DNA of 32,000 nucleotides from Candidatus Saccharimonadota bacterium (GTDB lineage: Bacteria; Patescibacteriota; Saccharimonadia; Saccharimonadales; Saccharimonadaceae), in contig CP006915.1 in NCBI GenBank assembly GCA_000503915.1, positions 810,001 to 842,000 on the forward strand, given 5' to 3'. Below the pieces are notes generated by a model, which saw nothing but the letters and a program-made list of their open reading frames with translations, was not told where the DNA came from and did no database searches. A program made the translations under genes and the position numbers. Positions within the stretch are counted from its first letter, which is position 1. Each line of letters starts with the position of its first letter. Positions 1 through 29,663 of the stretch are shown piece by piece.

Positions 1-3000
1 AACACCAAGATGTTCTCGGACTTTTGCAAGAATAGAGCCGTTGTAGTGAAAAGGCCACCAATTATATTCGCCCGGGTGCTGGTCCTTTTTTGACTCTGCG
101 ATTATGGCCGGTCTTTCGAAATCTAGACTCATTCTCCAAATCTTGTAACAATCATCAAACTTTTTATCGATATAACGCTTAATAAATATATGAAGATGAC
201 TATAAACATGATGGTTATAGTTCTTAATAGCAAAGGGGAGGTATTTTATACTTATAGCGAAGAACTTATCAAAATTGCCATTGTTTTTAATTGGTTCTTC
301 GGGCAGTTTTGCGATGTGCCAAACCAAAGATTCTCTGTGATCTTCTGAGCCATTTTCTAGGAAATCTTTTAACCTATCTTGAATTAGTTTTGGGTTATAT
401 GGGGGCATTGGTCCGCCACGTGCCTTTGACCAATTCCTAAACGCACCCTTTCTGAATTCTGCAAGGAACAGGAGTAATGTATCAAGCTCTTTTAGTGTTT
501 CTTTATCGCCGTGCTTTACGAATATATCAATGACTTCGAGTGCCTGAGACTCATTCATGGTTCTGATTCTATTGAAGACTCGTGCTAAGTGTTGCAAAAT
601 CCCATAATGATAATTTGTCTTATCTTTCAACATAGTGAAAGCAAAGTCTTCTATCCCTTTGGCCGTAGAATATTTCATAAACCAATCCTTACTTTCAGGC
701 ATAGTCGTGTGGCGATTGTTAGCAAGTGCTTCAAGCATTAGTAGTGATAGTTGTCGAACATACAAACTCTCGTCTGTACAGAGCTTTTTTGTGAGTTCAA
801 ATGCACGCTCCGTATAATCTCGCCCTGCAACGGAATTAACGGGCATTAGTATCCAAGCAATACATCCACGCACACTACTGATTTGGATATTATGCTTTCC
901 TTCAACAACGTCCTTATCAAACTCGCTATTTTTCTCAGGGCTTGGATCGGTGATAAAGAAGTCTGCTATATAGAAAGCTTCTTCAAATTTGTGCTTTTTT
1001 GAAAGCTTCTCGGCAAACCAAACGAAGTTCTCCCGTGTTTCAGTATTTGTAATTTTTGCGGCAAGTTTTGCAGCATTACCTGCAATCTCTAGTTCAGGCT
1101 TAACAATATCTAAGTAAATAGTGTCGAGATAGTCGTCAGGCATATCTCTTAAAACTGAACCAAAAACTCTCTGCTGATTCTCGGTCGGCTTATTGGCAAC
1201 TAGTGAACGCAGTATACCTATACCATTGTCGTAATCTTTCTTTAAAACATTGAGGATTGGATCTTTGGCGTCATACGAATGGAATGAGTCAAGCGACTTA
1301 GAGAAGTAATCACCGTGAAGAAATCCCTCTAAAAGGTGAGTACCCTGCTGGAAAGTGTCGTCGTTGCTAATGAGACGCATAATGGATTGAATTACGGTTG
1401 TATCAAACATAATTTGCCGATTCATATAGTCCTCATTCGCTAAAAGATTAGAGAATGTCTCTATGGCCTGCTCGTGTTTTGCCCCCAAGAGCCCCCAAAG
1501 AACCTGATCCATAAATACGTTAATTGGATAGCCAAACTCTTTAATCGCAACATTCAATAAAGTCCATTTTTGTTCGATGCTCAGTGTCTCGGAGTCTCTA
1601 ACATAAAAGAAAATGAGCTCGGCTTTGTGAGGTATGCCTTTCCTCATCTTTATGAATTCAGACAATATTCTAAAAGCTTTTTTATTGCCTTGTTCATATT
1701 GTTCAAGTAAGAATGGAATAAACGCCCTATTCATAAAGTCGGGTTTAGACTCGCTCACTTCGCTGACTTTAAGAGATATATATTTATCAGCAAGCTTCCA
1801 TTTTTTATCAATAGGCAACCTTTTAAGATAGGGCTTGATAATTGTTCTTATAAAGACTCTGTCGTGAACCTCATAATCCCCTCCGAAGTTTGACGTACCG
1901 CCTCCCATCAATTCCCAGCCATCATATTTGATCTTGAACCTCTCATATTGCCGGCTGTATTGATCTGCAAGTTGTTCAAGTAAATAACTAAAACTGCTTG
2001 GTTTAGCTAGCAGGTCATCTCGTAGAATGTCGAAGAACTTGAAGGGTGTTTTATGTGAATATTTATAATCTTCATCGACAATGTCAAAGGTCTCATATAT
2101 ATAGCTAACTATGTCTGCCTTCAAGCGTTCGTTTCCTTTTGAGTATAGTCTATCGAACCCATTGGCGAGCTCACCTAAAAGCCACTCATCACGAGCCTTA
2201 GAGCCACCTTCAATGAATAAGGGGCTTTCCGTTGAGAATGTATAAAGTCGTTTTAACAAGTCAAAGACATCGTCAATGAGTTCATCGGAAGCATCGACGG
2301 CTTTCATTAGAATATCAGCCGTAGACTTAAACTCATACTCTTCCATATTTCTAAAACGAAGCTTTTGAACATTGTCTTTTATGAAGCTAACTATGTATTT
2401 TGCCGAAGCTTCATCGTTTACATTATCTTCAAATATTCTCAACACTTCTCTTGCGTAGTAAGAGCTGAAAGTAGCTAGCCAGAAACTATGCCAAGCAGCG
2501 AGATCTAGGCTATCGGCCTTAGAGATTTCTTGTATGGCAAAGTAATGAAGACCCGAATCAGCAATAACCGCTTTCAGTCTATTTTCGGATTGAAGCCTTG
2601 AGTTATTTGCATTTGTTAGCTCCTCAAGTATCTTATTGACCGTTTCTCTTGCTGTACGCTCGCTGTATTTATAATCGTCTTTCTTTTTTAGCAATTCTCT
2701 TCGGGCTTCTAGCTCATTATCAAATTCAACTTTGGTGTAATTCCCACCTTTTGCAGATCTATCATAAACATTCTTCACTAAAAGGTTACTTATAAGATCG
2801 TCAAGTTCATCGTCGGGTAACCAAGATCTAAATCTTTCACCAACCAGATTTCTGACAATATCTTCATTCATATCTTTATCTACGACCCAAAATTTCACTT
2901 TAGATATTAATTCTAGATGTCTAGTGGTGAACTGGTGCTTTTTAACTAACCGCTCATTTACTTCAGGATAATACTTTGCATTATCAAGATCCTCTTTGAT

Positions 3001-4196: not shown

Positions 4197-4224
4197 CTAA
4201 ACTAATTATACAATCTTATTAACA

Positions 4225-4253
4225 GAAAACAGCGAGACTTACTCGCTGTTTTC
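4225..4253 (-). terminator. Bidirectional-looking hairpin terminator downstream of tRNA-Gln
   Basis: GAAAACAGCGAG-actta-CTCGCTGTTTTC is a perfect 12-bp inverted repeat with A/T runs on both sides. It lies between the tRNA-Gln 3' end and the island operon. Confidence 0.6.
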
Positions 4254-4286
4254 TGAGCCCATTTGGGTCACCTTTGATGTACTACT

Positions 4287-4360
4287 TGGCTGGGGATGAG
4301 GGATTCGAACCCCCGATCACGGGACCAGAACCCGATGCCTTACCGCTTGGCTAATCCCCA
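4287..4360 (-). tRNA. tRNA-Gln (anticodon CTG), CCA encoded
   Basis: Minus strand reads TGGGGAT TA GCCAAGCGGTAAGGC A TCGGG TTCTGGT CCCGT GATC GGGGG TTCGAAT CCCTC ATCCCCA G CCA. It has the U1:A72 start typical of bacterial tRNA-Gln. A TATAAT box lies at 4376..4371, about 11 nt upstream. Confidence 0.9.
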
Positions 4361-4390
4361 ATACTAAATTATTATACCGTAAATGTGCAG

Positions 4391-4579
4391 TGGGGTTCGA
4401 ATGGATTCGACCGACGTTCCGCCGGCTCGAAACTTCGCGACTGAAAGCGCAGCTTTCATCGGAAGGTTTCCTTGCGAATTGCCACCGGCAATCCTCACCC
4501 CGATCACGGGACTCTGGACCTCGGTGCCTTACCCCCGCCTGTCTGTCCGACAGGACGGGCAGGACTTGGCTAATCCCCA
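4391..4579 (-). ncRNA. Structured GC-rich tRNA-Gln-derived element (long form of the tRNA-flank hairpin family); function unknown
   Basis: Minus strand starts TGGGGATTAGCCAAG, 15/15 identical to the tRNA-Gln 5' end. Next comes the hairpin CCTGCCCGTCCTGTCGGACAGACAGGCGGGG, inserted where the D-loop would be, then GGTAAGGCA and CCCGTGATCGGGG (tRNA-Gln-like). About 110 nt of consecutive short hairpins follow (ATTGCC-GGT-GGCAAT, GAAAGC-TGC-GCTTTC, CCGGC-GGAAC-GTCGG, TCGAAT-CC-ATTCGA). The 3' end AACCCCA can pair with the 5' TGGGG. A TACAAT box lies at 4599..4594. Confidence 0.4.
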
Positions 4580-4618
4580 ATAGTTCACGCTAAATTGTAC
4601 ACGAAATAGCCGCTTATC

Positions 4619-5131
4619 TCAAGAGGCGGCGGCGCGACGACGTTCATGAATCACTACATACACATAAGCGCTTGCAAGTACCAAGCTCCAGAGTACGGCA
4701 ATAATTCCGCCAGGTAGCGCCAATGTGTCGCCAAACAGAGCACTATTTTCGGCGTGAGCGTTGGTGAGCGAAGTAAACAGCCAAAATAATACGACCGCCC
4801 CGCCCAAAGCTGCGCTGAGCACTCTCATCAGAGAGCTCAATTTCATACCCAGTAAGTACGGCAAAGCAAAAAGCTCAGCTGCGGTAACAAGCGCCGTACT
4901 TATCGCTACTAATTGCTGGTCATTATACGCCAGTACGAGCGCCAAGATGGAAGCAAAGTTCTCAAACGAGAACAGCTGAGCCAGAAGCATCAGCACCAAC
5001 ATCCCGGTCGCCAGCCAAGCGGCGTACTGCACCCGAACCGGTCGGAGCGGCGGATAGTGAGCAATGACAGCTTTCATACTCCCAGTATATAGGCGATGCG
5101 CTCCGAAGAAAAGTGTTGTTATTTTCATCAA
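4619..5131 (-). CDS. Integral membrane protein (about 4 TM, MauE/DoxX-like guess)
   Basis: ORF track; hydrophobic segments AAWLATGMLVLMLLAQLF, LVTAAELFALPYLLG, GGAVVLFWLF, IIAVLWSLVLASAYVYVV. The true start may be the internal MKAVIAH. Confidence 0.6.
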   Translation of the reverse strand: MMKITTLFFGAHRLYTGSMKAVIAHYPPLRPVRVQYAAWLATGMLVLMLLAQLFSFENFASILALVLAYNDQQLVAISTALVTAAELFALPYLLGMKLSSLMRVLSAALGGAVVLFWLFTSLTNAHAENSALFGDTLALPGGIIAVLWSLVLASAYVYVVIHERRRAAAS

Positions 5132-9286: not shown

Positions 9287-10015
9287 TTAAGACGCAAAAC
9301 TGTCGGGGTGTTCACTCTGGTAGCGTTCGAGCGCTGCTCGGGCGGCTTGTTGTTGGGCAATTTGTTTGCTGTGTCCTTTACCCTTACCCTTCATTTTGGC
9401 GTTCACAAAGACACCGAGCGTAAACAACTTGTCATGATCGGGACCGATCTCCTCGAGCACTTTATACTGTGGTGTGGCGCCATCGATGCGCTGCGAGACT
9501 TCCTGCAGATGCGACTTTGGGTCGCGCCAGCTACCCTCTTCGAGGATGGGCTCCAGTTTGCTGGCGATGTGTTTCAAAATAAAGCTTTCGGCATCTTTGT
9601 AGCCGCGCTCCAGATAGATCGCACCAATGACGGCCTCAAACGAATTCGCCAAGATCTGTTGGCGCGCTCGTTCACTGCCGTGCTTCTCGCCTTTGCTCAT
9701 ACGTAGCAAGGACTCGTAACCCAGCTTATCGCCGGCTTCACCGATACTTTCCGTCCGCACCAGTGCAGCGCGCCAGCTGGTCAATGTACCCTCCGGTTCG
9801 CTGTAATTGTTGTAGAGAAAGTCGGTAACGGCCAGCTCCAACACTGCATCACCGAGGAACTCCAAACGCTCATTGTGCTCAGACACACTTTTTTTGTGTT
9901 CGTTGACGTAGCTTCGGTGCGTGAGAGCCGTGACGAGGAGATCAATATTCTTAAATTCAAAACCCAGCTTCTCGCGAGCAAATTCTTGGTAGGGAGCTAC
10001 GGACATACCTGACAT
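9287..10015 (-). CDS. rnc: Ribonuclease III
   Basis: ALTHRSY, the NERLEFLGDAVLEL signature, and a C-terminal dsRBD (KSHLQE...QQAARAAL). A TAATG overlap joins it to the upstream Nudix gene. Confidence 0.93.
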   Translation of the reverse strand: MSGMSVAPYQEFAREKLGFEFKNIDLLVTALTHRSYVNEHKKSVSEHNERLEFLGDAVLELAVTDFLYNNYSEPEGTLTSWRAALVRTESIGEAGDKLGYESLLRMSKGEKHGSERARQQILANSFEAVIGAIYLERGYKDAESFILKHIASKLEPILEEGSWRDPKSHLQEVSQRIDGATPQYKVLEEIGPDHDKLFTLGVFVNAKMKGKGKGHSKQIAQQQAARAALERYQSEHPDSFAS

Positions 10016-10512
10016 TACAGATTCTCCTGGCGAATTCGTTTCATCCCGAGCAGCATCAGCTTGCCGATGTCTTCGTACTCAATAGCATCGAGCGCATCGC
10101 TAAATGAAAACCATTTGATACCGTTCATCCATTCTTCCTTCTTAATCGCGTTGGTATTACCCATCGCTTTTACAAGGTAGATTTGTGTCGTCATGAGCAC
10201 CAACTTGTCGATGCGGCGATAACGGAAATGGATTTTGCCGAGCCAACCGAGGACTTCCACCTCTGTTAGTCCAGCCTCTTCACCAATCTCACGCTTTGCA
10301 GTCTCCTGCGCGGTTTCACCTGGTTCAATATGTCCTTTCGGAATCGTCCAGCGGTCTTTGGCGTCTTGAATCAGCAGGATCTCTATCTCGCCCTGTTTGT
10401 TGCGACGATAAACCACCCCGCCAGCCGTCGGCTCGCGCACGATTTCCTGAATAGAGGGTTTTTTACCGCGATTAAAATATTTCTTGAATTTACCGAGTTG
10501 AGGTGTTGGCAT
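10015..10512 (-). CDS. Nudix hydrolase
   Basis: Canonical Nudix box GHIEPGETAQETAKREIGEEAGL (Gx5Ex7REUxEExGU). Confidence 0.85.
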   Translation of the reverse strand: MPTPQLGKFKKYFNRGKKPSIQEIVREPTAGGVVYRRNKQGEIEILLIQDAKDRWTIPKGHIEPGETAQETAKREIGEEAGLTEVEVLGWLGKIHFRYRRIDKLVLMTTQIYLVKAMGNTNAIKKEEWMNGIKWFSFSDALDAIEYEDIGKLMLLGMKRIRQENL

Positions 10513-11255: not shown

Positions 11256-11615
11256 ATGAAAGATGTGTTGGATAAAACCCCGAACAAGCTTCGGACTTCG
11301 ACGGTAGCTATTGTAGCTGTCATGAGCGGTATCGCACTTAATAGCTGCACCGCCGCTGACAAAGGAACTGCACCAACTCCCGCCTGTGCTATCCACATTG
11401 AGCGGGGTGATACGCTCTATAGTATCGCCGCTGCGAGCGACATGGATATACGCGAAGGCATTGCCGAGATGAAACAGATTAATTCAGGTGTCGACGCCGG
11501 TCATCTAAGCATTGGAGACGATGTGGCGATCAGCTCACAGATGTGTCAGGATATTATTGGCAACAAAAAAAATACCTTGGATCTGCGCCCACTACACGAC
11601 GATCTCAATCAGTAA
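11256..11615 (+). CDS. LysM-domain lipoprotein
   Basis: Signal peptide with a lipobox (IALNSC), then ERGDTLYSIAAAS...INSGVDAGHLSIGDDVAI, which is LysM-like. Confidence 0.65.
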   Translation: MKDVLDKTPNKLRTSTVAIVAVMSGIALNSCTAADKGTAPTPACAIHIERGDTLYSIAAASDMDIREGIAEMKQINSGVDAGHLSIGDDVAISSQMCQDIIGNKKNTLDLRPLHDDLNQ

Positions 11616-14508
11616 TTACAATACTCACCAGCCGGCCGGGAACGTAAATCGTCTTGGCCGGTTTTTGTGTACCGACAAATTTCTGAACATTTTCATCAGC
11701 CAGAGCCGCCGCGATAGCATCTTCTTTACTGACATCTTTAGCGAGCTCGAGTTTGGCACGTACTTTCCCGTTTACCTGAACAACGATTGTCGCTGTTTCG
11801 CTAGTCGTGAGCGCCTCATCCCACGATGGCCATGGTGCAGTATCGAGCGACTCTTCGTGTCCGAGCTGCTGCCAAAGTTCAGCGCTGAGATGTGGCGCAA
11901 ATGGAGCGAGTAGCTGGGTCATGGTCTCTAATACGTCACGCCATGGTTTATCACTAAATCCATCAGCTTTTAATTTGTATAGTTCATTCGTTGCTTCCAT
12001 CATAGCTGCAATGGCGGTATTGAAACTCAATCGGTGCAAGTCTTCGGTGACTTTTTTCGTCGTCTTATGTTGCAAACGACGAACCGCATCGTCCTGCTGG
12101 GTGTCCGCTACTGTGTCAGCTGCTAGATATTCCTGTGTCAATGTCCAGACGCGCGTCAGGAAACGATAGACACCGGCTAGGCCATTAGTGCTCCAGGCTG
12201 AATCTTCTTCGATTGGACCAACAAACAGCAGGAAGGTGCGTAATGCATCAGCGCCGTAGCCTTGGTCGATAATGTCGAGTGGGTCAATGACATTGCCAAG
12301 GCTTTTACTCATCTTGCGGCCGTCCTCGGCTTGGATCAGGCCGTGGTAGACTAGTTTCTTAACTGGCTCCTTGCTCGGTACCAGTCCCATGTCGTAAAAA
12401 ACGTGATTCCAGAAGCGGACGTAGAGCAAATGCGCGACCGCATGGTCGCCACCAACATAGTAGTCAACCGGTGTCCAGTAGTCGGCCTTTTCTTGCGACC
12501 AGGCTTGCTGGTCGTTCTTCGGGTCGGTGTAGCGCAGCAAATACCAGCTACTACAGGCGTAGCCGTCCATGGTATCAGTTTCACGCTTTGCTGGGCCACC
12601 ACACTCAGGACAGGTCGTATTAACCCAGTCGTCGACGCGCGCCAGCACTGATTTACCGTCACCTTTTGGGGCGTAATCTTCTACTTCTGGCAGCACCACT
12701 GGCAGCTGATCTTCTGGCACCGCCACGGCGCCATCTTTTTCACAATGAATGATCGGAATCGGCGCACCCCAATAACGCTGGCGAGAAATCAGCCAATCGC
12801 GCATTTTGTAGGTGGTCATCATCTTGCCTGTTCCCTGCTCTTCCAGCCAGGCAACAACCTCTTCACGCGCCTCACTCGTCGGCATGCCGTCAAAAGCTCC
12901 AGAATTTACCAGTACACCCTCATTGGCATATACGGCTGTCTTTTGATCTAGATACGCCAGCCATACTTTTAGATGCGTCTGCCAGGTAAGCTTTTTAGCT
13001 ACCTGATCTTTTGTAATCCACTCAATAGTGTGCTTGCCCTCATCAACTTCACTTCTGATTTGAGTTTTTGAGCCAAGCATAACTTCATATGCAGCACCTC
13101 TATAGCGATGATTCACCCCTTTGTCCGGACGATAGGCAATACCGGAAATGATTGGGAAAATTTTTCTGACACTTACAATATCTGTATAGCCCGTCTCCTC
13201 AGCTACTTCCCTACGTAGTCCGTCTTCCGTCGAAGAGTCTTCTTGTTCAATCCCTCCCCCAACGAAGTGCGTATCGGTCACCCCACCTTCTGTTGAAGTT
13301 TGTAGCAAGTAATTACCCTCGCCATCGCAGATGACTGCATCCGCCACGTTTCGATCGATAGTCTCAGCGTCTAACTCTGGCTCAAAGTGATCGCCACTAA
13401 TATGATGCTCAGCAACCACTTGCACTACTGGCAATTTGTACTTCTCTGCAAATTCATAATCACGTTCGTCATGAGCCGGCACAGCCATGATAGCGCCCGT
13501 GCCGTAGCCACCAAGGACATAGTCGGCAATCCAGATAGGAATTTTTTCTCCCGTGGCTGGATTGATGGCATAGGAGCCGGTAAATACACCTGTTTTTTCT
13601 TTGCCTTCACTTTGACGCTCAATCTCAGACTTTTTCAGCGCCGTTTTTACATAAGCGTCGACATTTTCGTGCGTCTCATCAGTCGTCAGTGCCTCGACTA
13701 GCGAATGCTCCGGCGCAATAACCATGAAGGTAGCACCGAAAATCGTGTCGGGACGCGTCGTAAATACGGTGAGCGTTTCATCATGCTCGGCGACCAAGAA
13801 CTCAATCTCGGCACCCTGGCTTTTGCCGATCCAGTTGGTTTGGGCAGTTTTGATCTTTTCCGGCCAGTCGAGCGCCGGGATTTCTTCGAGCAGCGCATCG
13901 GCATAGTCAGTAATCTTGAAAAACCATTGGCGAATATTCTTTTTTTCAGCCAGTGGATCGTCGGGACCATCGTGGCGCCAGCACTTGCCATTGATAACCT
14001 GCTCGTTGGCAAGCACCGTTTGATCGATCGGACACCACCATTGCAACGAATCTTTCTGATAAGCCAGGCCACGCTCAAAAAACTTGGTAAAAACCCATTG
14101 GGTCCAGCGATAGTAGTCGGGGTCGGACGTATTGATCTCGCGCGACCAGTCGATACTGGCGCCGAGCCGTTTTAGCTGATGAGTAAAATTGGCGATATTG
14201 TCTTTGGTCACTTTGGCCGGTGCCATGCCGGTCTTGATCGCGTAATTTTCAGCGGGCAGTCCAAATGCATCCCAACCCATCGGGTTCATGACATTGCGGC
14301 CGTGTGCACGTTGAAAACGGGCAATTGCATCGACAACCGAATGTTCCATAGCATGGCCAGAGTGCATACCGGCGGCACTTGGGTACGGGAACATAGGAGA
14401 AATATAGAATTTTTCCCTATCGCCGCCGTCGCTTGCCTGGTAGCGGCGCTCGTCCGCCCAAACTTTTTGCCAGCCAGGCTCGATCTCACTCGGATTGTAT
14501 CGCTGCAT
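11605..14508 (-). CDS. leuS: Leucyl-tRNA synthetase carrying an internal Nudix-like domain insertion (about aa 366-528)
   Basis: PYPSAAGMHSGHAMEH (HIGH-type), KMSKSLGN, and the CP1 editing region (TTRPDTIFGATFMVIAPEH, AVPAHDERDYEFAEKYKLP). The protein is 967 aa. The insertion contains GGGIEQEDSSTEDGLRREVAEETGY. Confidence 0.93.
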   Translation of the reverse strand: MQRYNPSEIEPGWQKVWADERRYQASDGGDREKFYISPMFPYPSAAGMHSGHAMEHSVVDAIARFQRAHGRNVMNPMGWDAFGLPAENYAIKTGMAPAKVTKDNIANFTHQLKRLGASIDWSREINTSDPDYYRWTQWVFTKFFERGLAYQKDSLQWWCPIDQTVLANEQVINGKCWRHDGPDDPLAEKKNIRQWFFKITDYADALLEEIPALDWPEKIKTAQTNWIGKSQGAEIEFLVAEHDETLTVFTTRPDTIFGATFMVIAPEHSLVEALTTDETHENVDAYVKTALKKSEIERQSEGKEKTGVFTGSYAINPATGEKIPIWIADYVLGGYGTGAIMAVPAHDERDYEFAEKYKLPVVQVVAEHHISGDHFEPELDAETIDRNVADAVICDGEGNYLLQTSTEGGVTDTHFVGGGIEQEDSSTEDGLRREVAEETGYTDIVSVRKIFPIISGIAYRPDKGVNHRYRGAAYEVMLGSKTQIRSEVDEGKHTIEWITKDQVAKKLTWQTHLKVWLAYLDQKTAVYANEGVLVNSGAFDGMPTSEAREEVVAWLEEQGTGKMMTTYKMRDWLISRQRYWGAPIPIIHCEKDGAVAVPEDQLPVVLPEVEDYAPKGDGKSVLARVDDWVNTTCPECGGPAKRETDTMDGYACSSWYLLRYTDPKNDQQAWSQEKADYWTPVDYYVGGDHAVAHLLYVRFWNHVFYDMGLVPSKEPVKKLVYHGLIQAEDGRKMSKSLGNVIDPLDIIDQGYGADALRTFLLFVGPIEEDSAWSTNGLAGVYRFLTRVWTLTQEYLAADTVADTQQDDAVRRLQHKTTKKVTEDLHRLSFNTAIAAMMEATNELYKLKADGFSDKPWRDVLETMTQLLAPFAPHLSAELWQQLGHEESLDTAPWPSWDEALTTSETATIVVQVNGKVRAKLELAKDVSKEDAIAAALADENVQKFVGTQKPAKTIYVPGRLVSIVITD

Positions 14509-22247: not shown

Positions 22248-22374
22248 CTCTTATCCAGGGTTTCACCTTTAACAGATCAAATAAGGCCGGCTTCTATTTT
22301 TGAAGAAACCGGGAGTCATAAATCATACATGCCAATTAAAAAACCGAGGCTAGGCCTCGATGTTTTAATTGGTG
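22248..22374. repeat. Left copy of a ~127-bp direct repeat bracketing the R-M/PurM-like island
   Basis: Aligns by eye at roughly 88-90% identity with 28118-28246: CTCTTAT..CAGGGTyTCACCyTTAACAGATCAAATAAGGCCGGCTTCTATTTTTGAAGAAACCrGGAGTCATAAATCATACAT...AATTAAAAAACCGAGG...CCTCGATGTyTTAATTGGTG. Includes a terminator hairpin. Confidence 0.85.
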
Positions 22375-22576: not shown

Positions 22577-24406
22577 TTACCTAACGAGATCTGTCGACCA
22601 GTTGTTAAGGATATCCTCTGTGTTCGCAACCCAGACATCGGAGCTTTCTGATGATTCTGCGTTTTCTGCAATGCTCTCGACGAGATTTCGGAGATTATCA
22701 TGAGTAAAGCGTCTGCCAGACTTTCTAATTTGTTTGAGAGTTTTCAGAATTAAGACAAATTGGTTGATTGTGATTGGTGTAATCTTTTGCTTGCTGCCTT
22801 TGTAGCCATGGACATTAGCAATCCAAAATGTTTCGGCACTGTCGGTATGAATCGTCGGTGCGATAAATATACAATAGGCATTTTGATTTGTTGCCTCGAA
22901 GTCTCGGAGGTGTCGCATAACAGGTTGACCTTCGTTGTACCACTGGTCGCGCCCACTGAGCATCGTAACTTCACAAATCATATTGAAGTCGTCGTAGTAA
23001 CACTCTATATCCGCCATGCCGCCAGGAGCAGTAGACGTTGGTTCATTATCATCTCCAACGGGATAGTTCGGCTTTATCTCCTTTGCGTCGTTGAGTGCGT
23101 GTAGTCCCATTGTTGAGAGATATTCTAGGCGTAGCGGTCGATTTTCAGCAGTAAAGATATTTTCTAGCTGCTCAATGTAGTCAGTGATTGATTCAACAGG
23201 TTGCGACTTTACGTGATTATCCTGCTCTTGCAGTTCTTTTCGCAAGGCTCGTAACTCACTAATGTAGTCGTTAAGCTCTGCTTCGCTCATTTCTGAGGTA
23301 TTTTTTACGCTAAGAACTGACAAACCGAGATCTATTTGCAGACTACTAACATCATCGTAAACTTCAGACACTATTCCAGCTAACTTATCTTTAGTTTGCC
23401 ACGGCAAACGTGGCTGACTATCGTCTGACATGTAACCCAAGTACTCATCTTTGTCGATGAACGTCTTTGGCTTGTAAAATGCTGTTTCAAATAGTGACTC
23501 AATCTCCGTATGACGGTTAGGCTCTAAGTCGATATAAAATCCATTACCACGAATACGAATGAACTTTGTAAGGCGGAAGTATCGTATTGCATTATCACCG
23601 TAATCACGTAGATTCTTAAGATGTGTATCTATTTCTTTTTGCACGCTTGAGCCAAGAAAGCTGACAGCAAAGCTACGTCGATAACTATCACGCATTGCCT
23701 TCCTGTCTGCCTTTGTTTTACCTTTTTGAGCCTCTCGGAGCTTCACGATCTCATTTGCATATCTGGATATATCACGGTAATTAATTAGCGTAGGGACAAA
23801 TAAGCAGAACTCTCGTTTGCTAATGCCGACCGACTTATTGCCTCGATCCGACCATAGTTTATTTACCTCACTAATGAGCTTGAGCATTGCCACAAACGGC
23901 ACGACGTCGTATTTGCCATCATCACTGTAGTCATTGCTAGCTGGGTTGGGTATTTGCCACTTAATAAACGACTTAAGGAATACATCGCCAGAATCTTTTT
24001 CACTTGCTATCAGTTTTTGACCAAGCTCTGTGATTTTCAAAATACCATTATCTATGAATGCAAAGCCAAACTTTGTGAGCGGGTTGATTGACTGGCGACC
24101 ACGCATCGAGAAATCTTGATAGTTTTTTGCTTCAATAATGCGGTCGATTATAGTGCCGGTAATCTCAGCATCGACATCGTTAATAGTGGCTACAACATCA
24201 GGAGGCAAACCGTTATAAAACTGCTGACTTCCGTAACCATATAAGCGATTCTTGATGAGTAGTTTTTGATATTCTTTCTGGCTATCTCGATTCCACTCTT
24301 TGCCAACAAGGGGTTGCAAGGCAACTAAAAATGCTCTCAGCCGTTCAGGGCTGCGAACGGTGGTTGATATTGACCACATTTTTGACATAATATCATTATA
24401 TCTCAC
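22577..24406 (-). CDS. Type II (IIS-like) restriction endonuclease, AlwI/MlyI/PleI/N.BstNBI-family candidate
   Basis: About 600 aa, directly downstream of the methylase gene (2-nt gap). The N-terminus WSISTTVRSPERLRAFLVAL resembles what I recall of the AlwI-family N-terminus; this was not verified by search. An alternative ATG start at 24388 (MSKMWSIS) has TATAAT 6 nt upstream. Confidence 0.6.
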   Translation of the reverse strand: MRYNDIMSKMWSISTTVRSPERLRAFLVALQPLVGKEWNRDSQKEYQKLLIKNRLYGYGSQQFYNGLPPDVVATINDVDAEITGTIIDRIIEAKNYQDFSMRGRQSINPLTKFGFAFIDNGILKITELGQKLIASEKDSGDVFLKSFIKWQIPNPASNDYSDDGKYDVVPFVAMLKLISEVNKLWSDRGNKSVGISKREFCLFVPTLINYRDISRYANEIVKLREAQKGKTKADRKAMRDSYRRSFAVSFLGSSVQKEIDTHLKNLRDYGDNAIRYFRLTKFIRIRGNGFYIDLEPNRHTEIESLFETAFYKPKTFIDKDEYLGYMSDDSQPRLPWQTKDKLAGIVSEVYDDVSSLQIDLGLSVLSVKNTSEMSEAELNDYISELRALRKELQEQDNHVKSQPVESITDYIEQLENIFTAENRPLRLEYLSTMGLHALNDAKEIKPNYPVGDDNEPTSTAPGGMADIECYYDDFNMICEVTMLSGRDQWYNEGQPVMRHLRDFEATNQNAYCIFIAPTIHTDSAETFWIANVHGYKGSKQKITPITINQFVLILKTLKQIRKSGRRFTHDNLRNLVESIAENAESSESSDVWVANTEDILNNWSTDLVR

Positions 24407-24408
24407 TG

Positions 24409-26397
24409 TCAGTAGTTTGTAATTAGTACCTCGACCGTTTTATTATTCTTTGCCATTGAGTGATAGTTAGAGTTTTTGTAGTGATAGTCAAGTTTGTTAA
24501 TGTGGTAGCTGTTTTTTTCCACCCATTTCTTCATTATCTCGTTAACTTCACCTTTATGCTCCAATACGTTTGAGAGGGCGAACCGTATATTTTTTTTATG
24601 TAGCTTAGTGAGCAGAGTGTACAAGTCTTTTTCATCCTTTTCTGTCCAGCCACCCAGCTCATTATAGCTTGCTAAGCCTAGCAGATATGGAGGGTCGAGA
24701 TACACAAAGTCATCTTTTTGCAATTTCATCATTTCTATATCTCGAAAGTCAGCATGTTTGAATGTAATGTTTTTTTCGTTCGCCGCTTGATTGAACGCCG
24801 CAACATTTCTTCTTGAGCTGCCGTTATAGTCACGTTTACCCACGGGTAGATTGAAGTCACCCTTTGAATTGAATCGTATCTGATTATTGAACGAGTAGAG
24901 AACTAGTATGAGTAATAGGTCAATACGTTTTTTAGATTTATTGAACTCATCACGCAACTCAAGAAATGCTTGTTTATTAACTTTTCCAAGCCCAGCCGAG
25001 CTTTCAGCTCCATAAAAATCATAGCCTTTTATGTAGCTCTGACTTAGACCGAACTTATCGATAATATCGACAATTTGTTGATTCAGGTCATCAAAATTAG
25101 TACCTTGTATTAGCTGCAAAAGGTCAATGACATTCTTATTTTTCTCGACACAGATGATACTTTGGGCATCGGCATTTATGCCAACATTTGCACCCCCAGC
25201 AAACACATCGTAAAAAGTATTGATGTTTTCAGGGAATAGCTTTGTAATCTGCGGCAGCAGTTTATGTTTTCCGCCAGTATAGTTGAGGGGTGACTTAACA
25301 TAGCCACTTTGTATAGGGTTTCGCTTTGATGCGACTATGGATTTTTGTGTTGTAGTTGTGCTATTAACTTTACATAAAAAGATTCGTTCTTTCAGATCAT
25401 CTTTGTTTGATTTGCCAGTTGTAAACTGCTTAAAATCAGTCTCGTATATCTGAACCTCGCCTTTTCGCTTGAGGGCAGAGAGTATTTCATGGTCGCTGAT
25501 TCGTGATTGAGAACGTGCGTTGCCAGAACCACCCATATCGTTATAAGAAACGAGAATGTATTTTGCATTGATTGCGTCGATGAGTTCGCCAAAAGCAACA
25601 CCCGCTGATTTCATACTGTACTTACTCTTTATATGGTCTCGATTGATTTTCTTTGCAACGCCAAACACCTCTTGCTTATGCCATGATGCGATGTTTTCCA
25701 GCAAGTGGTAAGCATCAGAATATTGCCGTGAATTATAGGGCGGGTCGATGTATACCACATCGGCTTTTATTTGCTTTACTAACTCATTTGCATCACTTTT
25801 ATATATCGTTGCTTTGTATTTTGAGGATTTTACATTAAGCGGCAGGAGGAATAGCTCTTTCTTAGGAATATCTATTTTTCTATACGCATCGTAGTGTCCA
25901 ACAGTATTTGCGATTCTATCAAGAGCATAGATAAGCGAGGTGAGTAAATATGACTTTTCTCTCGGAGTAATAATCTTTTCTTCAAATAATTTCTCTATAT
26001 CATCTCGAATGATGCCAATTTTCTTTGAGTTTATTTTGTCAAAGTAGGTATTTGCAAAGTTCTTTGAAAAGTAATTGTCATCGTATTTTTCTATGTCTAG
26101 GGAATTATAAACTTTAAGTCGTTTTTTCAGTTTCTCCTCTCTAATTTCATCATTTCCAAAAAAAGCATTATAAGCATGGTGGTTTGAATCGAGGATATCG
26201 TTTACAATGATTTGGGAGCGGTCGTAAAAGTGATTTGCAACCGACCCAGTACCTGCAAAGATATCTGCAAATGAGTTGAACTTTATATTTTCCTTCTGCA
26301 ATATGCTGTCAATAAAGTTTAGTAGCTTTGTTTTTGAGCCAAGATAACGTCTTTGTGTTATACAGAATGATTTATTTCCAAAATATGCATCGTCCAT
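24409..26397 (-). CDS. Fused double N6-adenine DNA methyltransferase (two Dam/D12-class domains)
   Basis: Domain 1: RRYLGSKTKLL, FADIFAGTGSV, DPPYNSRQYSD. Domain 2: LNYTGGKHKLLPQI, FYDVFAGGANVG, DPPYLLGLASY. The ATG at 26397 (MDDAYFGN) is preferred. The ORF track extends to a TTG at 26487. Confidence 0.85.
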   Translation of the reverse strand: MDDAYFGNKSFCITQRRYLGSKTKLLNFIDSILQKENIKFNSFADIFAGTGSVANHFYDRSQIIVNDILDSNHHAYNAFFGNDEIREEKLKKRLKVYNSLDIEKYDDNYFSKNFANTYFDKINSKKIGIIRDDIEKLFEEKIITPREKSYLLTSLIYALDRIANTVGHYDAYRKIDIPKKELFLLPLNVKSSKYKATIYKSDANELVKQIKADVVYIDPPYNSRQYSDAYHLLENIASWHKQEVFGVAKKINRDHIKSKYSMKSAGVAFGELIDAINAKYILVSYNDMGGSGNARSQSRISDHEILSALKRKGEVQIYETDFKQFTTGKSNKDDLKERIFLCKVNSTTTTQKSIVASKRNPIQSGYVKSPLNYTGGKHKLLPQITKLFPENINTFYDVFAGGANVGINADAQSIICVEKNKNVIDLLQLIQGTNFDDLNQQIVDIIDKFGLSQSYIKGYDFYGAESSAGLGKVNKQAFLELRDEFNKSKKRIDLLLILVLYSFNNQIRFNSKGDFNLPVGKRDYNGSSRRNVAAFNQAANEKNITFKHADFRDIEMMKLQKDDFVYLDPPYLLGLASYNELGGWTEKDEKDLYTLLTKLHKKNIRFALSNVLEHKGEVNEIMKKWVEKNSYHINKLDYHYKNSNYHSMAKNNKTVEVLITNY

Positions 26398-26480
26398 ACT
26401 CCCAATATAGCTTAATGTGGTTATGCTAACAATACCGAATTTTAAGATTTTTGGGTTTTGTGGATAAGTGTACTGACTAT

Positions 26481-26504
26481 GGTTCAAGAGGACTGTTCTC
26501 TTAT
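26481..26504. repeat. 24-bp repeat GGTTCAAGAGGACTGTTCTCTTAT (copy 1), with inverted 7-bp arms around a 7-nt spacer
   Basis: Matches 28101-28124 at 23/24. TTAAGAG-gactgtt-CTCTTAT has the architecture of a recombinase core site. It overlaps the methylase-upstream region and the membrane-protein stop. Confidence 0.7.
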
Positions 26505-26872: not shown

Positions 26873-28015
26873 CTAAAACTCCAGCCACTCACTATCTGAA
26901 CCAGCACCAAGATTGCGAATTTTAATACCTGGCTTTTCTGTTACTACGCCAATCTCTTGTGCAACAACACCGTGCTGCTCGGCAGCCTCAAGAACTTTCT
27001 CTGGTTCGTTAGTTGCAACTACCATACCTGGCCCCATGTGCCATTTTCCATAAGCCGTCCTGTCGTCAAAGCCACGAATCTCTTGCATCTTCAGCATAAT
27101 GTCGGGCGGGGTATTAGGATTACTAATCTCCACACCAAGCCCACTTGGCTCTAACATTCTTCCAATTTTACTGGGCTGACCACCACCAGTTATGTGAGCA
27201 ACTCCAGTCACCCTAGCAAGTGATTCCTTTGCAATGTCATAACCCCCCGTTAATTCAGACATAAAGCCAGAGTAGATTATCGAAGGGGCTTGTACAAGTT
27301 TACCGAGAGCTACATCGCTCAGTGAACGGTCAATTTTGTTGTGCCAGTCTTCACCATATTCTTTCAGCATAGCTTTGCGAACGTCAGTAATTCCATTTGA
27401 ACGGAAGCCGTGTTCGCTAAAACCAACGAGTGTGTTGCCTGCTTCAATTTGATGTCCTGTCAATATACGGTCTTTATGAGCGACCCACAAGATTGCAGCA
27501 CCCCAGTTGTAATTAAACTCTCCAAACCCTCCAACACGGTCTCCAAGCTCTGCCACTTCACCATTCACTACAGCAACCTTTGCAAGCCCTGCAGCCGCTA
27601 CGTAACCGTATGCGAGTTGACGAAGTGCCTCTCGTGTATGTTCTGTATCGTCCAACTGCCGAACATCTAAAATTGTTCCGATTGCGAGTGGCTCAGCGCC
27701 CCGCACAACCGCATCATCACATACCATAGCAAACAAGTCATGAGCCACGGTCGAATGGTTATCCATGCGCTCGGCTATCTCAATTTTTGTACCTACCCCA
27801 TCAAAACCTAGATTGATTTCAAGATTTTCAAAATCTTTATCCTTAAACTGAGAAAGAGGGATTGAACGGAACCCAGAGAAGGATTCATGTGCTTCTCGCA
27901 CTAATCCTGGTCGATTAGCGTGAGTATGCTTCGATGCTTCGTAAAGCATTTTTGAGGCATCGTCTCCTAGTTCAATGTTAACGTCTTGGATTGGTCTGCG
28001 AGATAGTTCTGTCAT
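26873..28015 (-). CDS. PurM/AIR-synthase-superfamily protein (divergent, PurM-like)
   Basis: FDGVGTKIEIAE, HDLFAMVCDDAVVRGAEPL, NGEVAEL, FRSNG and VAHITGGG line up with PurM motifs (DGVGTK, DLVAMCVNDLVVQGAEPL, GGETAEM, SNG, AHLTGGG). It has an N-terminal extension and is AT-rich. Confidence 0.7.
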   Translation of the reverse strand: MTELSRRPIQDVNIELGDDASKMLYEASKHTHANRPGLVREAHESFSGFRSIPLSQFKDKDFENLEINLGFDGVGTKIEIAERMDNHSTVAHDLFAMVCDDAVVRGAEPLAIGTILDVRQLDDTEHTREALRQLAYGYVAAAGLAKVAVVNGEVAELGDRVGGFGEFNYNWGAAILWVAHKDRILTGHQIEAGNTLVGFSEHGFRSNGITDVRKAMLKEYGEDWHNKIDRSLSDVALGKLVQAPSIIYSGFMSELTGGYDIAKESLARVTGVAHITGGGQPSKIGRMLEPSGLGVEISNPNTPPDIMLKMQEIRGFDDRTAYGKWHMGPGMVVATNEPEKVLEAAEQHGVVAQEIGVVTEKPGIKIRNLGAGSDSEWLEF

Positions 28016-28124: not shown

Positions 28125-28246
28125 AACAGGGTCTCACCCTTAACAGATCAAATAAGGCCGGCTTCTATTTTTGAAGAAACCAGGAGTCATAAATCATACA
28201 TACTAATTAAAAAACCGAGGGGCAAGCCTCGATGTCTTAATTGGTG
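28118..28246. repeat. Right copy of the ~127-bp direct repeat; contains the tRNA-Gly(GCC) terminator and ends inside the tRNA 3' CACCA
   Basis: Aligned by eye with 22248-22374. The terminator on the minus strand is CGAGG-cttgcc-CCTCG GTTTTTT (28206-28232). Confidence 0.85.
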
Positions 28247-28317
28247 CGGGTTAGGAGACTCTAACTCCTGGCCTCTTCCATGGCAAGGAAGCGCTCTAAC
28301 AACTGAGCTAAACCCGC
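28242..28317 (-). tRNA. tRNA-Gly (anticodon GCC), CCA encoded, with unusual D and T loops
   Basis: GCGGGTT TA GCTC AGTTGTTA GAGC G CTTCC TTGCCAT GGAAG AGGCC AGGAG TTAGAGT CTCCT AACCCGC A CCA. The D-loop lacks GG (GU instead), and the T-loop is UUAGAGU rather than UUCRANU. Confidence 0.85.
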
Positions 28318-28365
28318 ATATGTGATCAGTGATATATTAGTCACTGGATGAAATGTACAAACATG

Positions 28366-28441
28366 AGCTTTCTTGGCCTGGCAACTCTTCACTCTAACAG
28401 CTGACCTGCCCGCCGGGCGTGACAGGCGGGGCTAAACCCGC
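28366..28441 (-). other. Pseudo-tRNA-Gly(GCC) 5' portion with a GC-hairpin insertion in the D-loop (short member of the hairpin family)
   Basis: Minus strand reads GCGGGTTTAGC [CCCGCCTGTCACGCCCGGCGGGCAGG] TCAGCTGTTAGAGTGAAGAGTTGCCAGGCCAAG. The flanks follow tRNA-Gly(GCC) through the TTGCCA anticodon loop. No T-arm or 3' acceptor is present. Confidence 0.6.
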
Positions 28442-28813: not shown

Positions 28814-28858
28814 GCGGGTATCGTATAACGGCCACCCGGGTGACCTTCCCCCGCCTGT
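28814..28858 (+). other. Left half of a split hairpin-family element (acceptor-like GCGGGTA ... CCTTCCCCCGCCTGT)
   Basis: GCGGGTATCGTATAACGGCCACCCGGGTGACCTTCCCCCGCCTGT. Its reverse complement, ACAGGCGGGGGAAGGTCACC, matches the segment after the hairpin in element 4391-4579 (ACAGGCGGGGGTAAGGCACC). An extended -10-like TGCTACAAT lies just upstream. Confidence 0.55.
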
Positions 28859-29014: not shown

Positions 29015-29055
29015 ATGATAACTTCACCTATCTCTATTTGAAAGGAGGTGAAGAG

Positions 29056-29460
29056 ATGGAGATGACCCAGTCAATCAAGCTGGTCGGAAAGCCCGAAGAC
29101 GTCATCCGAGATGCAACACTGCTGCAAGAGTTCTTGGAGGGTCTGGAGACTGCCGCGGGCGAGATCCCCGATGTCGGCAATCACCAAGAGTGGCCGACAT
29201 ACGTCGATGGGCTTCTGGAGTTCCAGGGCGCTAGCGTGACTGTTTCCGAGAAGCTCGGACGTACGCTGTCGATCCTCCTGTATGCTCATGGCTCACTGGT
29301 CACGCGCAAGACACTCCAAGACATCGTTGTCGAAGAAGGCAAGAAGCCCAACGAGGCACTAGTGCGGATATCACGTCTGCGCGCACTGCTGTCGAAGGAC
29401 ATGCCTAGACTCGAGATCGAGTCAGTGGGTACCGGCTACAGGCTCAAGATCGTCGACTGA
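29056..29460 (+). CDS. Small protein with a C-terminal OmpR/PhoB-type winged-helix DNA-binding domain (no receiver domain)
   Basis: The ATG at 29056 sits 5 nt after AAGGAGGTG (the ORF-track TTG at 29038 is less likely). The C-terminus LSILLYAHGSLVTRKTLQDIV...EALVRISRLRALL...IESVGTGYRLKI follows the Trans_reg_C pattern. Codons are GC3-rich (about 60% GC in a spot count), unlike the neighbours. Confidence 0.7.
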   Translation: MEMTQSIKLVGKPEDVIRDATLLQEFLEGLETAAGEIPDVGNHQEWPTYVDGLLEFQGASVTVSEKLGRTLSILLYAHGSLVTRKTLQDIVVEEGKKPNEALVRISRLRALLSKDMPRLEIESVGTGYRLKIVD

Positions 29461-29617: not shown

Positions 29618-29663
29618 CCCCGCCTGTCTGTTCGACAGAACGGGCAGGTCCTTACCCGCACCA
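29618..29663 (+). other. Right half of the split hairpin-family element: complete GC hairpin plus a tRNA-like 3' end TACCCGC-A-CCA
   Basis: CCCCGCCTGTCTGTTCGACAGAACGGGCAGGTCCTTACCCGCACCA. The hairpin differs at 2 positions from the 4532-4563 copy. TACCCGC is the exact complement of GCGGGTA at 28814-28820. Confidence 0.55.

Follow-up and report, generated by a model that had tools for sequence, protein, structure and literature searches.

Archaeal non-canonical tRNA introns are related inserts that occupy several loop positions in many different tRNAs, always in the sense orientation. Miniature inverted-repeat transposable elements (MITEs), repetitive extragenic palindromic sequences and bacterial interspersed mosaic elements (REP/BIME), Correia elements and Rickettsia palindromic elements are short, multi-copy, hairpin-forming repeats that lack open reading frames (ORFs), are patchily distributed and can sit inside genes. 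Integron attC sites and the folded single-stranded attP site of the CTX phage are strand-specific imperfect palindromes with a conserved structure. In Neurospora, hybrid complementary DNAs (cDNAs) of the Mauriceville and Varkud retroplasmids with tRNA integrate at tRNA genes by homologous recombination, and in Salmonella tandem inversion duplications form at quasi-palindromes. Here we report on a stretch of 32,000 nucleotides (nt) from a Candidatus Saccharimonadota bacterium (assembly GCA_000503915.1, contig CP006915.1, positions 810,001 to 842,000 of the forward strand; from here: the window). Directly upstream of its tRNA-Gln gene lies a 189-nt segment (4391-4579) that contains a 93-nt module of three hairpins. 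This module belongs to a structured-RNA-like family, with many diverged copies, a shared secondary structure under selection and compensatory changes in its helices.

The family resembles each of these systems in part. Like the archaeal introns, its members are related sense-strand inserts in several tRNA loops, but they occur in a bacterium and in truncated hosts beside an intact gene, lack a bulge-helix-bulge motif, and are built of three stacked hairpins of which the first (P1) is nearly invariant; splicing is not seen in the sequence evidence. With the MITE/REP-type repeats the module shares small size, lack of ORFs, copy number, hairpins, patchiness and intragenic position, yet it has neither terminal inverted repeats nor a short target duplication, is strictly oriented with the tRNA, targets tRNA loops, comes with a partial duplication and inversion of its target, and covaries far above what is expected of neutral copies. 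As in attC and the CTX attP, structure-conserved palindromes border single-gene cassettes (L110, L113); in contrast to these sites, the arms are copied from the local tRNA, the sequence of the central module is conserved, most units are free of cargo and neither an integron integrase nor another recombinase is found nearby. The retroplasmid hybrids of Neurospora also are tRNA-foreign chimeras beside the parental gene with partial duplication, and snap-back synthesis could give inverted copies; unlike them, the module has its junctions inside tRNA loops, with tRNA sequence continuous on both sides, and not at the CCA end, and no reverse transcriptase was found. In L156 and L162 a short segment stands in sense, antisense and again sense orientation, and a terminator hairpin marks one of the turning points; this recalls the tandem inversion duplications of Salmonella, a model that leaves the foreign module in the last copy and the differing terminators of the unit unexplained.

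Methods

All element coordinates refer to the minus strand of the window unless stated otherwise. The Saccharibacteria comparison set consisted of 80 loci fetched via the neighbouring gene trmD, giving, with the window, 81 sources and 874 kb; fetched loci are designated by L numbers. The 21-nt motif TGCCRGTGGCANTTCGCAAGG, taken from P1, served as a strict metagenome query, and all copy numbers obtained with it are lower bounds. Covariance model R1 was built on an alignment of 75 copies, of which metagenome contigs supplied 72; its E-values are rough owing to a short calibration, which does not affect bit scores. Pairing statistics were computed over 74 distinct sequences. Rfam 15 was scanned at gathering and E-value thresholds with the window plus 42 loci; as far as they are modelled, these scans covered small self-cleaving ribozymes, omega-RNA/HEARO, Y-RNA-like RNAs, T-boxes and ROOL/GOLLD.

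Results

A partial tRNA-Gln copy with two insertions

Between the native promoter and the intact gene, tRNA-Gln is duplicated in part (positions 1 to ~54), and this copy, which makes up the segment, is decaying. Two insertions interrupt it: the D loop holds a GC-rich hairpin, the T loop the 93-nt module. Read along the minus strand, the features of this region are:

4594..4622, minus strand: promoter-like site TTGAGA-17-TACAAT, a 10/12 match in the promoter scan
4565..4579, minus strand: positions 1-15 of tRNA-Gln in copy, covering the acceptor 5′ strand and the first part of the D arm; TGGGGATTAGCCAAG, identical to 4360-4346
4533..4564, minus strand: 31-nt GC-rich hairpin in the D loop of the tRNA copy, with CCTGCCCGTCCTGTCGGACAGACAGGCGGG at 4563-4534
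4498..4532, minus strand: decayed tRNA-Gln continuation; GGTAAGGCA...GATCGGGG spans 4533-4498
4406..4499, minus strand: conserved three-hairpin module (93 nt), lodged in the T loop of the tRNA copy and matched by R1
4497-4473, minus strand: P1, first hairpin of the module
4470-4429, minus strand: P2, second hairpin
4426-4410, minus strand: P3, third hairpin
4391..4410, minus strand: segment end TCGAATCCATTCGAACCCCA: what remains of the T loop (TCGAATCC), then the T loop and T-stem 5′ strand in inverted copy (ATTCGAACCCC)
4361..4390, minus strand: spacer with a -10-like TATAAT (4376-4371) and no good -35, not called by the promoter scan
4287..4360, minus strand: intact tRNA-Gln(CTG), parent of the partial copy (ARAGORN; Rfam tRNA 58.5 bits)

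The continuation at 4532-4498 comprises the D-arm 3′ side, the anticodon arm, the variable region and the T-stem 5′ strand, and the local alignment of the segment to tRNA-Gln positions 17-49 stops right at the module. On the 3′ side of the module the antisense match corresponds to tRNA-Gln positions 48-58; the same combination of T-loop remainder and inverted T-arm copy is found in L036, L175, L137, L179 and L105. Decay of the copy is evident from the extra hairpin, an anticodon loop of 9 nt and the lack of a proper 3′ acceptor strand. Because this loop is 2 nt longer than normal, neither ARAGORN nor the Rfam tRNA model calls the copy. Folding of the whole 189 nt gave -80.4 kcal/mol (z = -2.35 versus shuffles), so that by itself the segment is only moderately unusual.

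An earlier note, made from the letters of the window alone, had described the tRNA-Gln start in the first 15 nt, the D-loop hairpin with tRNA-like sequence resuming behind it, and a -10-like TACAAT at 4599-4594. These observations hold: 4579-4565 is identical to the start of the parent gene, hairpin and continuation lie where they had been placed, and the TACAAT is part of the 10/12 promoter match. The run of about 110 nt of hairpins that the note reported is likewise present, but the conserved 93-nt module within it had gone undescribed. Its proposal that the terminal CCCCA pairs with the 5′ TGGGG probably does not describe the relevant pairing. Single-sequence folds allow the terminal ACCCC to pair either with that TGGGG or with the T-stem GGGG (4501-4498), and the other family members suggest the latter, in keeping with an inverted T-arm copy.

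A covarying family of at least 130 copies

A BLAST search of the element against the 80 Saccharibacteria loci gave two matches, one of 108 nt at 79% identity directly upstream of tRNA-Gln in L036, and a shorter one downstream of tRNA-Gln in L003. Compensatory changes in the three hairpins could be seen by eye in these three copies. The motif TGCCRGTGGCANTTCGCAAGG matched more than 120 metagenome stretches at least, and counting the window and the Saccharibacteria metagenome-assembled genomes L003 and L036 there are at least 130 module copies in all fetched sequence, with two or three on several contigs. Model R1 recovered further, diverged copies. In the window R1 has a single match, 4406-4499 on the minus strand (94.3 bits, rough E = 2.5e-21), and no second copy.

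P1 consists of 10 pairs flanking a conserved A·G mismatch and is closed by an RGU loop; it is nearly invariant, including its 5′ half, which the search pattern did not select. P2 has 17 pairs, three bulges and a conserved CUUG or CUNUG loop, while P3 has 7 pairs and in most copies a GAA loop. P2 also occurs in a second variant, of the CCGGAAG...GAGGCGG type. Across the 74 sequences 96.1% of the pair cells are paired, compared with 77.3% in column shuffles (0/500 as high) and 28-45% when the partners are slid. Double changes occur in 455 cells where 129.5 are expected. The earlier note had proposed looking for compensatory changes, and for the module they are found in 21 of the 34 pairs, among them 16 of the 17 in P2. 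Between L097 and L154, whose flanks are almost identical, the P2 tip shows four double changes. The helices contain 132 G·T against 22 A·C combinations, and one G·U (columns 81:89) is retained in 65/74 sequences, which indicates that the folded strand is the tRNA-sense strand.

In L084 (4244-4384), L098 (1653-1760), L143 (314-479) and L181 (5580-5742) modules are nested or in tandem, with a second unit taking the place of P3. The second P1 of these units has a different apical sequence and keeps the base GUGAG...CGCAAGG; it thereby provides the P1 covariation that is absent from the main alignment.

No match for the module family was obtained in Rfam 15, and no description of it was found in the full-text literature searched.

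Three ORFs cross the segment in the window, 4317-4580 on the minus strand and 4383-4583 and 4390-4593 on the plus strand. They are explained by GC richness, as the earlier note had held, and the changes between copies follow helices and not codons; a protein-coding origin was therefore rejected.

Strict orientation and position relative to tRNA genes

All copies with a tRNA within 400 nt lie on the strand of that tRNA. The core motif is found either 73-104 nt past the tRNA 3′ end or ~95-175 nt ahead of the tRNA 5′ end, and in three contigs (L115, L139, L153) the module stands on both sides of one tRNA. Each tRNA-embedded module sits in a partial copy of the same tRNA as the intact gene beside it. 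Upstream of a gene, a sense copy of the tRNA starts at position 1 and reaches to the insertion point; the module comes next, and behind it a few sense bases lead into a short stretch that repeats the adjoining segment in inverted form, with a spacer between this stretch and the intact tRNA. Downstream, the intact tRNA is followed by a terminator, a short inverted copy, a sense copy of approximately positions 43-53, the module and sense sequence to the CCA end, often with a second terminator behind it.

The tRNA sense sequence reaches the module with 0-1 base between them (few outliers) and continues beyond it. Insertion is in the T loop in all downstream cases and 18 upstream cases, in the D arm in 17 cases and in the anticodon loop in 3 cases of tRNA-Pro(GGG); the insertion points all lie directly after a G. 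The inverted copies have a median local alignment score of ~21, compared with ~14-15 for irrelevant comparisons. Over the last 20 nt the antisense copy has a median of 6 matches versus 18 for the sense copy, and the sense 3′ arm matches the tRNA perfectly in 11/42 cases and with at least 19/20 matches in 18/42.

In six loci (L092, L189, L091, L107, L192, L198) the host is not a tRNA. The module sits there in the hairpin GAGCCTACAGAGGGGGTGGGCACCGCTGTAGGCTC, with which a conserved non-coding stretch of ~500 nt separating pth from dprA begins (L092, ~1370-1800; L189, ~175-560). Rfam gave no match for this region, also when E-values up to 1 were admitted. The module is carried by a partial copy of its 5′ part, and the region thus behaves like the tRNA hosts.

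The downstream architecture of terminator, inverted tRNA copy, interrupted sense copy and CCA end also occurs with unrelated inserts (L156, 345-490; L097, 2795-2935; L110, 9095-9250). At tRNA-Phe in L156 this is a different insert of 79 nt, and in L097 and L110 the inserts are AT-rich; the architecture is hence not bound to one module sequence.

Turnover, empty sites and the native promoter

Around trmD, only 3 of the 81 Saccharibacteria sources carry the module (the window, L036 and L003), and at tRNA-Gln they differ in arrangement, the module being found upstream in the T loop, upstream in the D loop, or downstream of the gene. L002 and L049 have no element at tRNA-Gln; their TrmD proteins are nearer to that of the window (83-85% identity). 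The promoter of the window is orthologous to the sequence CTCTTGAG-N17-GGTACAAT directly ahead of tRNA-Gln in L002 and L049, from which it follows that the native tRNA-Gln promoter in the window now precedes the partial copy and the module. No terminator-like site was found by the scan between element and tRNA-Gln. The element would thus be co-transcribed as a 5′ leader of tRNA-Gln by read-through, and the transcribed leader suggested in the earlier note fits this arrangement.

Units of ~185-190 nt are amplified in tandem in several loci. Outside P1, module identity is 0.735 within the same contig versus 0.633 to others, and some same-contig pairs reach 89-98%.

The D-loop hairpin is a minor second insertion

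The earlier note had centred on the 31-nt hairpin and reported that its core recurs next to tRNA-like sequence in the window. The recurrence is real, with three traces, and the 17-nt core with up to three mismatches has three matches in the window, a number equalled in 0/100 shuffles. The importance given to it was not borne out, since the conserved, covarying unit is the T-loop module. The elements concerned are:

29618..29648, minus strand: second full copy of the 31-nt hairpin, 94% over 31 nt
28362..28441, minus strand: tRNA-Gly element, the second of the kind seen at tRNA-Gln, which precedes tRNA-Gly(GCC) (28242-28317) and is built on a partial copy of the tRNA-Gly 5′ part

Read on the plus strand, 29618-29648 sits within a tRNA-Gly-like 3′ fragment, between AGGAGTTCGACTC and TCCTTACCCGCACCA. 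A shortened, degenerate and inverted copy lies at 28405-28430 within the partial tRNA-Gly(GCC) 5′ copy, and at 28834-28858, adjoining tRNA-Gly(CCC), there is a 25-nt match of 80% that contains an 11-nt exact match. In the tRNA-Gly element the module position is reduced to TGA|AGAG, followed by sense and antisense anticodon-arm sequence TTGCCAGGCCAAGAAAGC; judged against its module-bearing homologues in L104 and L147, this element has lost its module. Only one further related hairpin copy was found in the 1.5 Mb of fetched loci (L110, 9212-9238, in a tRNA 3′-end fragment) and none in viral contigs; the idea of a widespread hairpin family was therefore dropped, and the hairpin is a real but minor second insertion.

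Between tRNA-Gly(CCC) and the hairpin-bearing tRNA-Gly 3′ fragment the window encodes a small protein (29038-29460, plus strand) whose only domain is a winged-helix Trans_reg_C domain.

Known RNA and element classes

Rfam returned only tRNAs for the window and for fourteen module-bearing loci at the gathering threshold, no match on the element for 4200-4700 of the window at E up to 10, and nothing credible on the module for seven short module-bearing loci at E up to 5; over all 42 loci and the window, tRNAs were the sole families recovered. The statement in the earlier note that the element belongs to no known RNA class thus agrees with the scans.

Several classes were considered and rejected individually. 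As a tRNA (RF00005/ARAGORN), only 4287-4360 is called here, and the copy has the 9-nt anticodon loop and two insertions. For transfer-messenger RNA, ARAGORN found none in the window and Rfam gave no match. A group I intron is contradicted by the absence of an Rfam match at E up to 10, by a length of 93 nt with three hairpins and by incomplete exons, and a bulge-helix-bulge tRNA intron by the truncated hosts and the lack of such a motif on inspection: P1 starts 2 nt past the 5′ junction and P3 enters the 3′ exon. Against a MITE or REP-like repeat, the module ends GTGAG... and ...GTGAC/GTAGG are direct and not inverted, there is no short duplication and no transposase recurs nearby. An IS200/IS605-derived element or TnpB/IscB guide RNA was dismissed since P1 is unlike P3, no such protein family neighbours the module and Rfam has no match; a retron non-coding RNA, since no reverse transcriptase is among the tested or recurring neighbours. 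A comparison with attC, for the fetched flanks only, showed cassette-like arrays and palindromic units with tRNA-derived arms, and a GTTCGAA that fits GTTRRRY loosely, with no integrase.

As to a phage origin, the strict motif had 0 matches in IMG/VR and a relaxed motif had 3, all of which failed the covariance model.

Cassette arrays and neighbouring genes

At tRNA-Lys-type 3′ ends in L110 (1-3600) and L113 (11100-12800), module units alternate with single-gene cassettes. These cassettes are bounded by the last 9 nt of the tRNA, and their genes are separated by GGCCCTCCA repeats and module units. The genes encode a LigT-like 2H phosphoesterase, a ROK kinase, GNAT proteins and small uncharacterised proteins, and each has a leader consisting of a hairpin, a T-run and GTTATAAT. 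The further suggestion of the earlier note, that the element is a recombination target for tRNA-flank islands, receives some support from these two loci, where modules border the cassettes.

Clustering of 1635 ORFs within 3 kb of modules revealed no recurring protein family; the clusters were spurious ORFs lying over the RNA itself, and housekeeping genes present in at most 5 loci. Pfam detected no integrase and no reverse transcriptase among the window genes and the array neighbours. In L159 a large serine recombinase gene (312-1850, minus strand) begins right after a tRNA-Gln(CTG) with a module-bearing copy upstream, and the same sequence is present in L116. Homologues of this type occur at 4 module loci and are the sole recombinase found.

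Elsewhere in the window, direct repeats at 22256-22374 and 28127-28246 share 94 nt at 95% identity, and the likeness goes on for ~25 nt at a lower level. Their sequence is that of the immediate tRNA-Gly(GCC) 3′ flank together with the last bases of the tRNA. The ~5.9 kb between them encode an enzyme of the AlwI restriction type (22577-24406), a D12 adenine methyltransferase (24409-26487) and a protein resembling AIR synthase (26873-28015), which suggests that a restriction-modification island has entered at the 3′ flank of tRNA-Gly(GCC). The leucyl-tRNA synthetase (11605-14508, minus strand) has a NUDIX domain (residues 387-511) inserted after its editing domain, and a separate NUDIX protein is encoded at 10015-10512.

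Discussion

We give an even chance to the reading that the module family is a non-autonomous, orientation-specific insertion element that moves via a single-stranded form and survives only in duplicated gene fragments. The module would act as a nucleic acid in single-stranded form (RNA or the sense strand of the DNA), and its entry points would lie behind a G in exposed loops, those of tRNAs and of one further hairpin at least. It would persist only where a partial gene duplicate takes the insertion and an intact copy remains adjacent. The tRNA copy and the real gene would then form direct repeats, and recombination between them would permit a clean loss, which would account for the empty sites in close relatives. 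The loop-type sites, the sense-only orientation and the conserved G·U make us lean towards the RNA form, and a route through cDNA and recombination would in addition account for the partial gene copies and the short inverted ones.

Several points weigh against such an element. No transposase, recombinase or reverse transcriptase is linked to the module among the neighbours examined, so that we infer mobility from its distribution alone; the single-stranded intermediate and the route to the duplicates and inverted copies are likewise putative. The module has neither terminal inverted repeats nor a short target duplication. Many copies share site and tRNA across metagenomes, e.g. the tRNA-Gly(GCC) D arm or the downstream position at tRNA-Gln(TTG), which also fits old, vertically kept insertions. 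The motif query partly imposes conservation on the 3′ half of P1, and the assignment to Saccharibacteria holds only for the relatives of the window, most metagenome contigs being without taxonomic assignment. A continuous antisense splint across the insertion point was considered and rejected, the result being near null (mean 9.9 versus 9.3 of 16; 11/75 above the 95th percentile). Finally, downstream copies lie behind the tRNA terminator, and their transcription is uncertain.

The main rival holds that the module is a resident functional RNA domain, e.g. protein-binding or regulatory, that is carried in tRNA leaders or trailers on tRNA-derived scaffolds and kept for the benefit of the host. 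Its strongest point is that the module helices are kept (96% paired) while the adjacent inverted tRNA copies decay, which could equally mean function in place. The strong covariation with one conserved G·U, the near invariance of P1 including the half that was free of motif selection, and the conserved CUUG or CUNUG loop of P2 would all be expected of it, as would the native tRNA promoter upstream in the window with no intervening terminator and the own terminator behind many downstream copies. A resident domain is harder to reconcile with the patchy occurrence among syntenic sources and the empty sites in the closest relatives, with varying positions in the host tRNA on either side of the gene, with nested and tandem copies, with different inserts filling the same architecture (L156, L097, L110) and with downstream copies that sit behind a terminator; on balance we regard it as unlikely, though not negligible. 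Rather unlikely, in our estimate, is a mobile RNA that is inserted at the RNA level and written back through cDNA, or else a trans-acting RNA family on tRNA-fragment expression scaffolds. The mobile RNA would insert into exposed loops of folded, abundant stable RNAs (the T, D and anticodon loops of tRNAs and the other hairpin), cDNA and homologous recombination would write the chimera back beside the parent gene, and self-primed (snap-back) synthesis would give the short inverted copies. Such a route would yield sense-only orientation, partial gene copies and short inverted copies.

The arrays raise the further alternative of a folded-DNA recombination site, comparable to attC or the CTX attP and formed by the module with its sense and antisense tRNA arms; a trans-acting recombinase would employ it for the insertion of small cassettes at tRNA genes. 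In L113 (11160-12700) and L110 (1-1000) a tRNA-Lys 3′ end is followed in turn by a terminator, an inverted copy, the module, a tRNA 3′ end, a single gene and a short tRNA 3′-end repeat, and the series continues in this manner, with genes for a GNAT, a 117-aa protein and a LigT-like phosphoesterase as cargo. Conserved structure with variable sequence in P2 and P3, the common GAA-type triloops of P3, the strict orientation and a sense 3′ arm that is often identical to the tRNA would suit such a site. Yet no recombinase recurs near the module, the large serine recombinase being confined to 4 loci, most units have no cargo between repeats, and one and the same recombinase would need to tolerate arms derived from roughly a dozen different tRNAs. 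The conserved G·U-type mismatch and the CUUG loops are more typical of RNA, and known tRNA-targeting integrases do not duplicate the 5′ part of a tRNA as the upstream copies do. A recombination site thus fits the arrays and little else, and we consider it quite improbable. Two remaining explanations can in effect be ruled out for the module. One is a strain-specific tandem duplication of tRNA-Gln, now decaying, with a random filler that happens to form hairpins. It would match the clearly decayed, uncalled copy in the window and the modest z-score of its single-sequence fold; for the module it is refuted by the 94.3 bits of this filler to R1, the homologues at the same tRNA in L036 and L003 and the massive covariation, and it stands only for the host tRNA copy. 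That the module is an intron of a working tRNA, removed by self-splicing or by endonuclease and ligase, is suggested by the several tRNA-loop positions, as in archaeal non-canonical introns, and by a 5′ part with intact anticodon arm in L102, L116, L175 and L097. The hosts, however, are never complete, upstream copies lacking the 3′ acceptor strand and downstream copies positions 1 to ~40; an intact gene of the same tRNA is always adjacent, inspection of the junctions revealed no bulge-helix-bulge, and 93 nt, besides having no group I match in Rfam at E up to 10, are too small for a group I or II core. Either explanation is highly improbable.

Conclusions

A strongly covarying 93-nt module with at least 130 copies, absent from Rfam 15 and from the literature searched, marks a repeated pattern of partial sense copies, short inverted copies and extra promoters or terminators at tRNA genes of Saccharibacteria. 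The units create pseudo-tRNAs, spurious ORFs (three in the window) and repeats, and can mislead annotation, tRNA counts and the calling of island boundaries in genomes of the candidate phyla radiation. Should the module prove mobile, it would be a tRNA-loop-specific and orientation-specific element for which no enzyme is known; as a resident RNA, it would represent a new class of non-coding RNA in a phylum for which very few are known.

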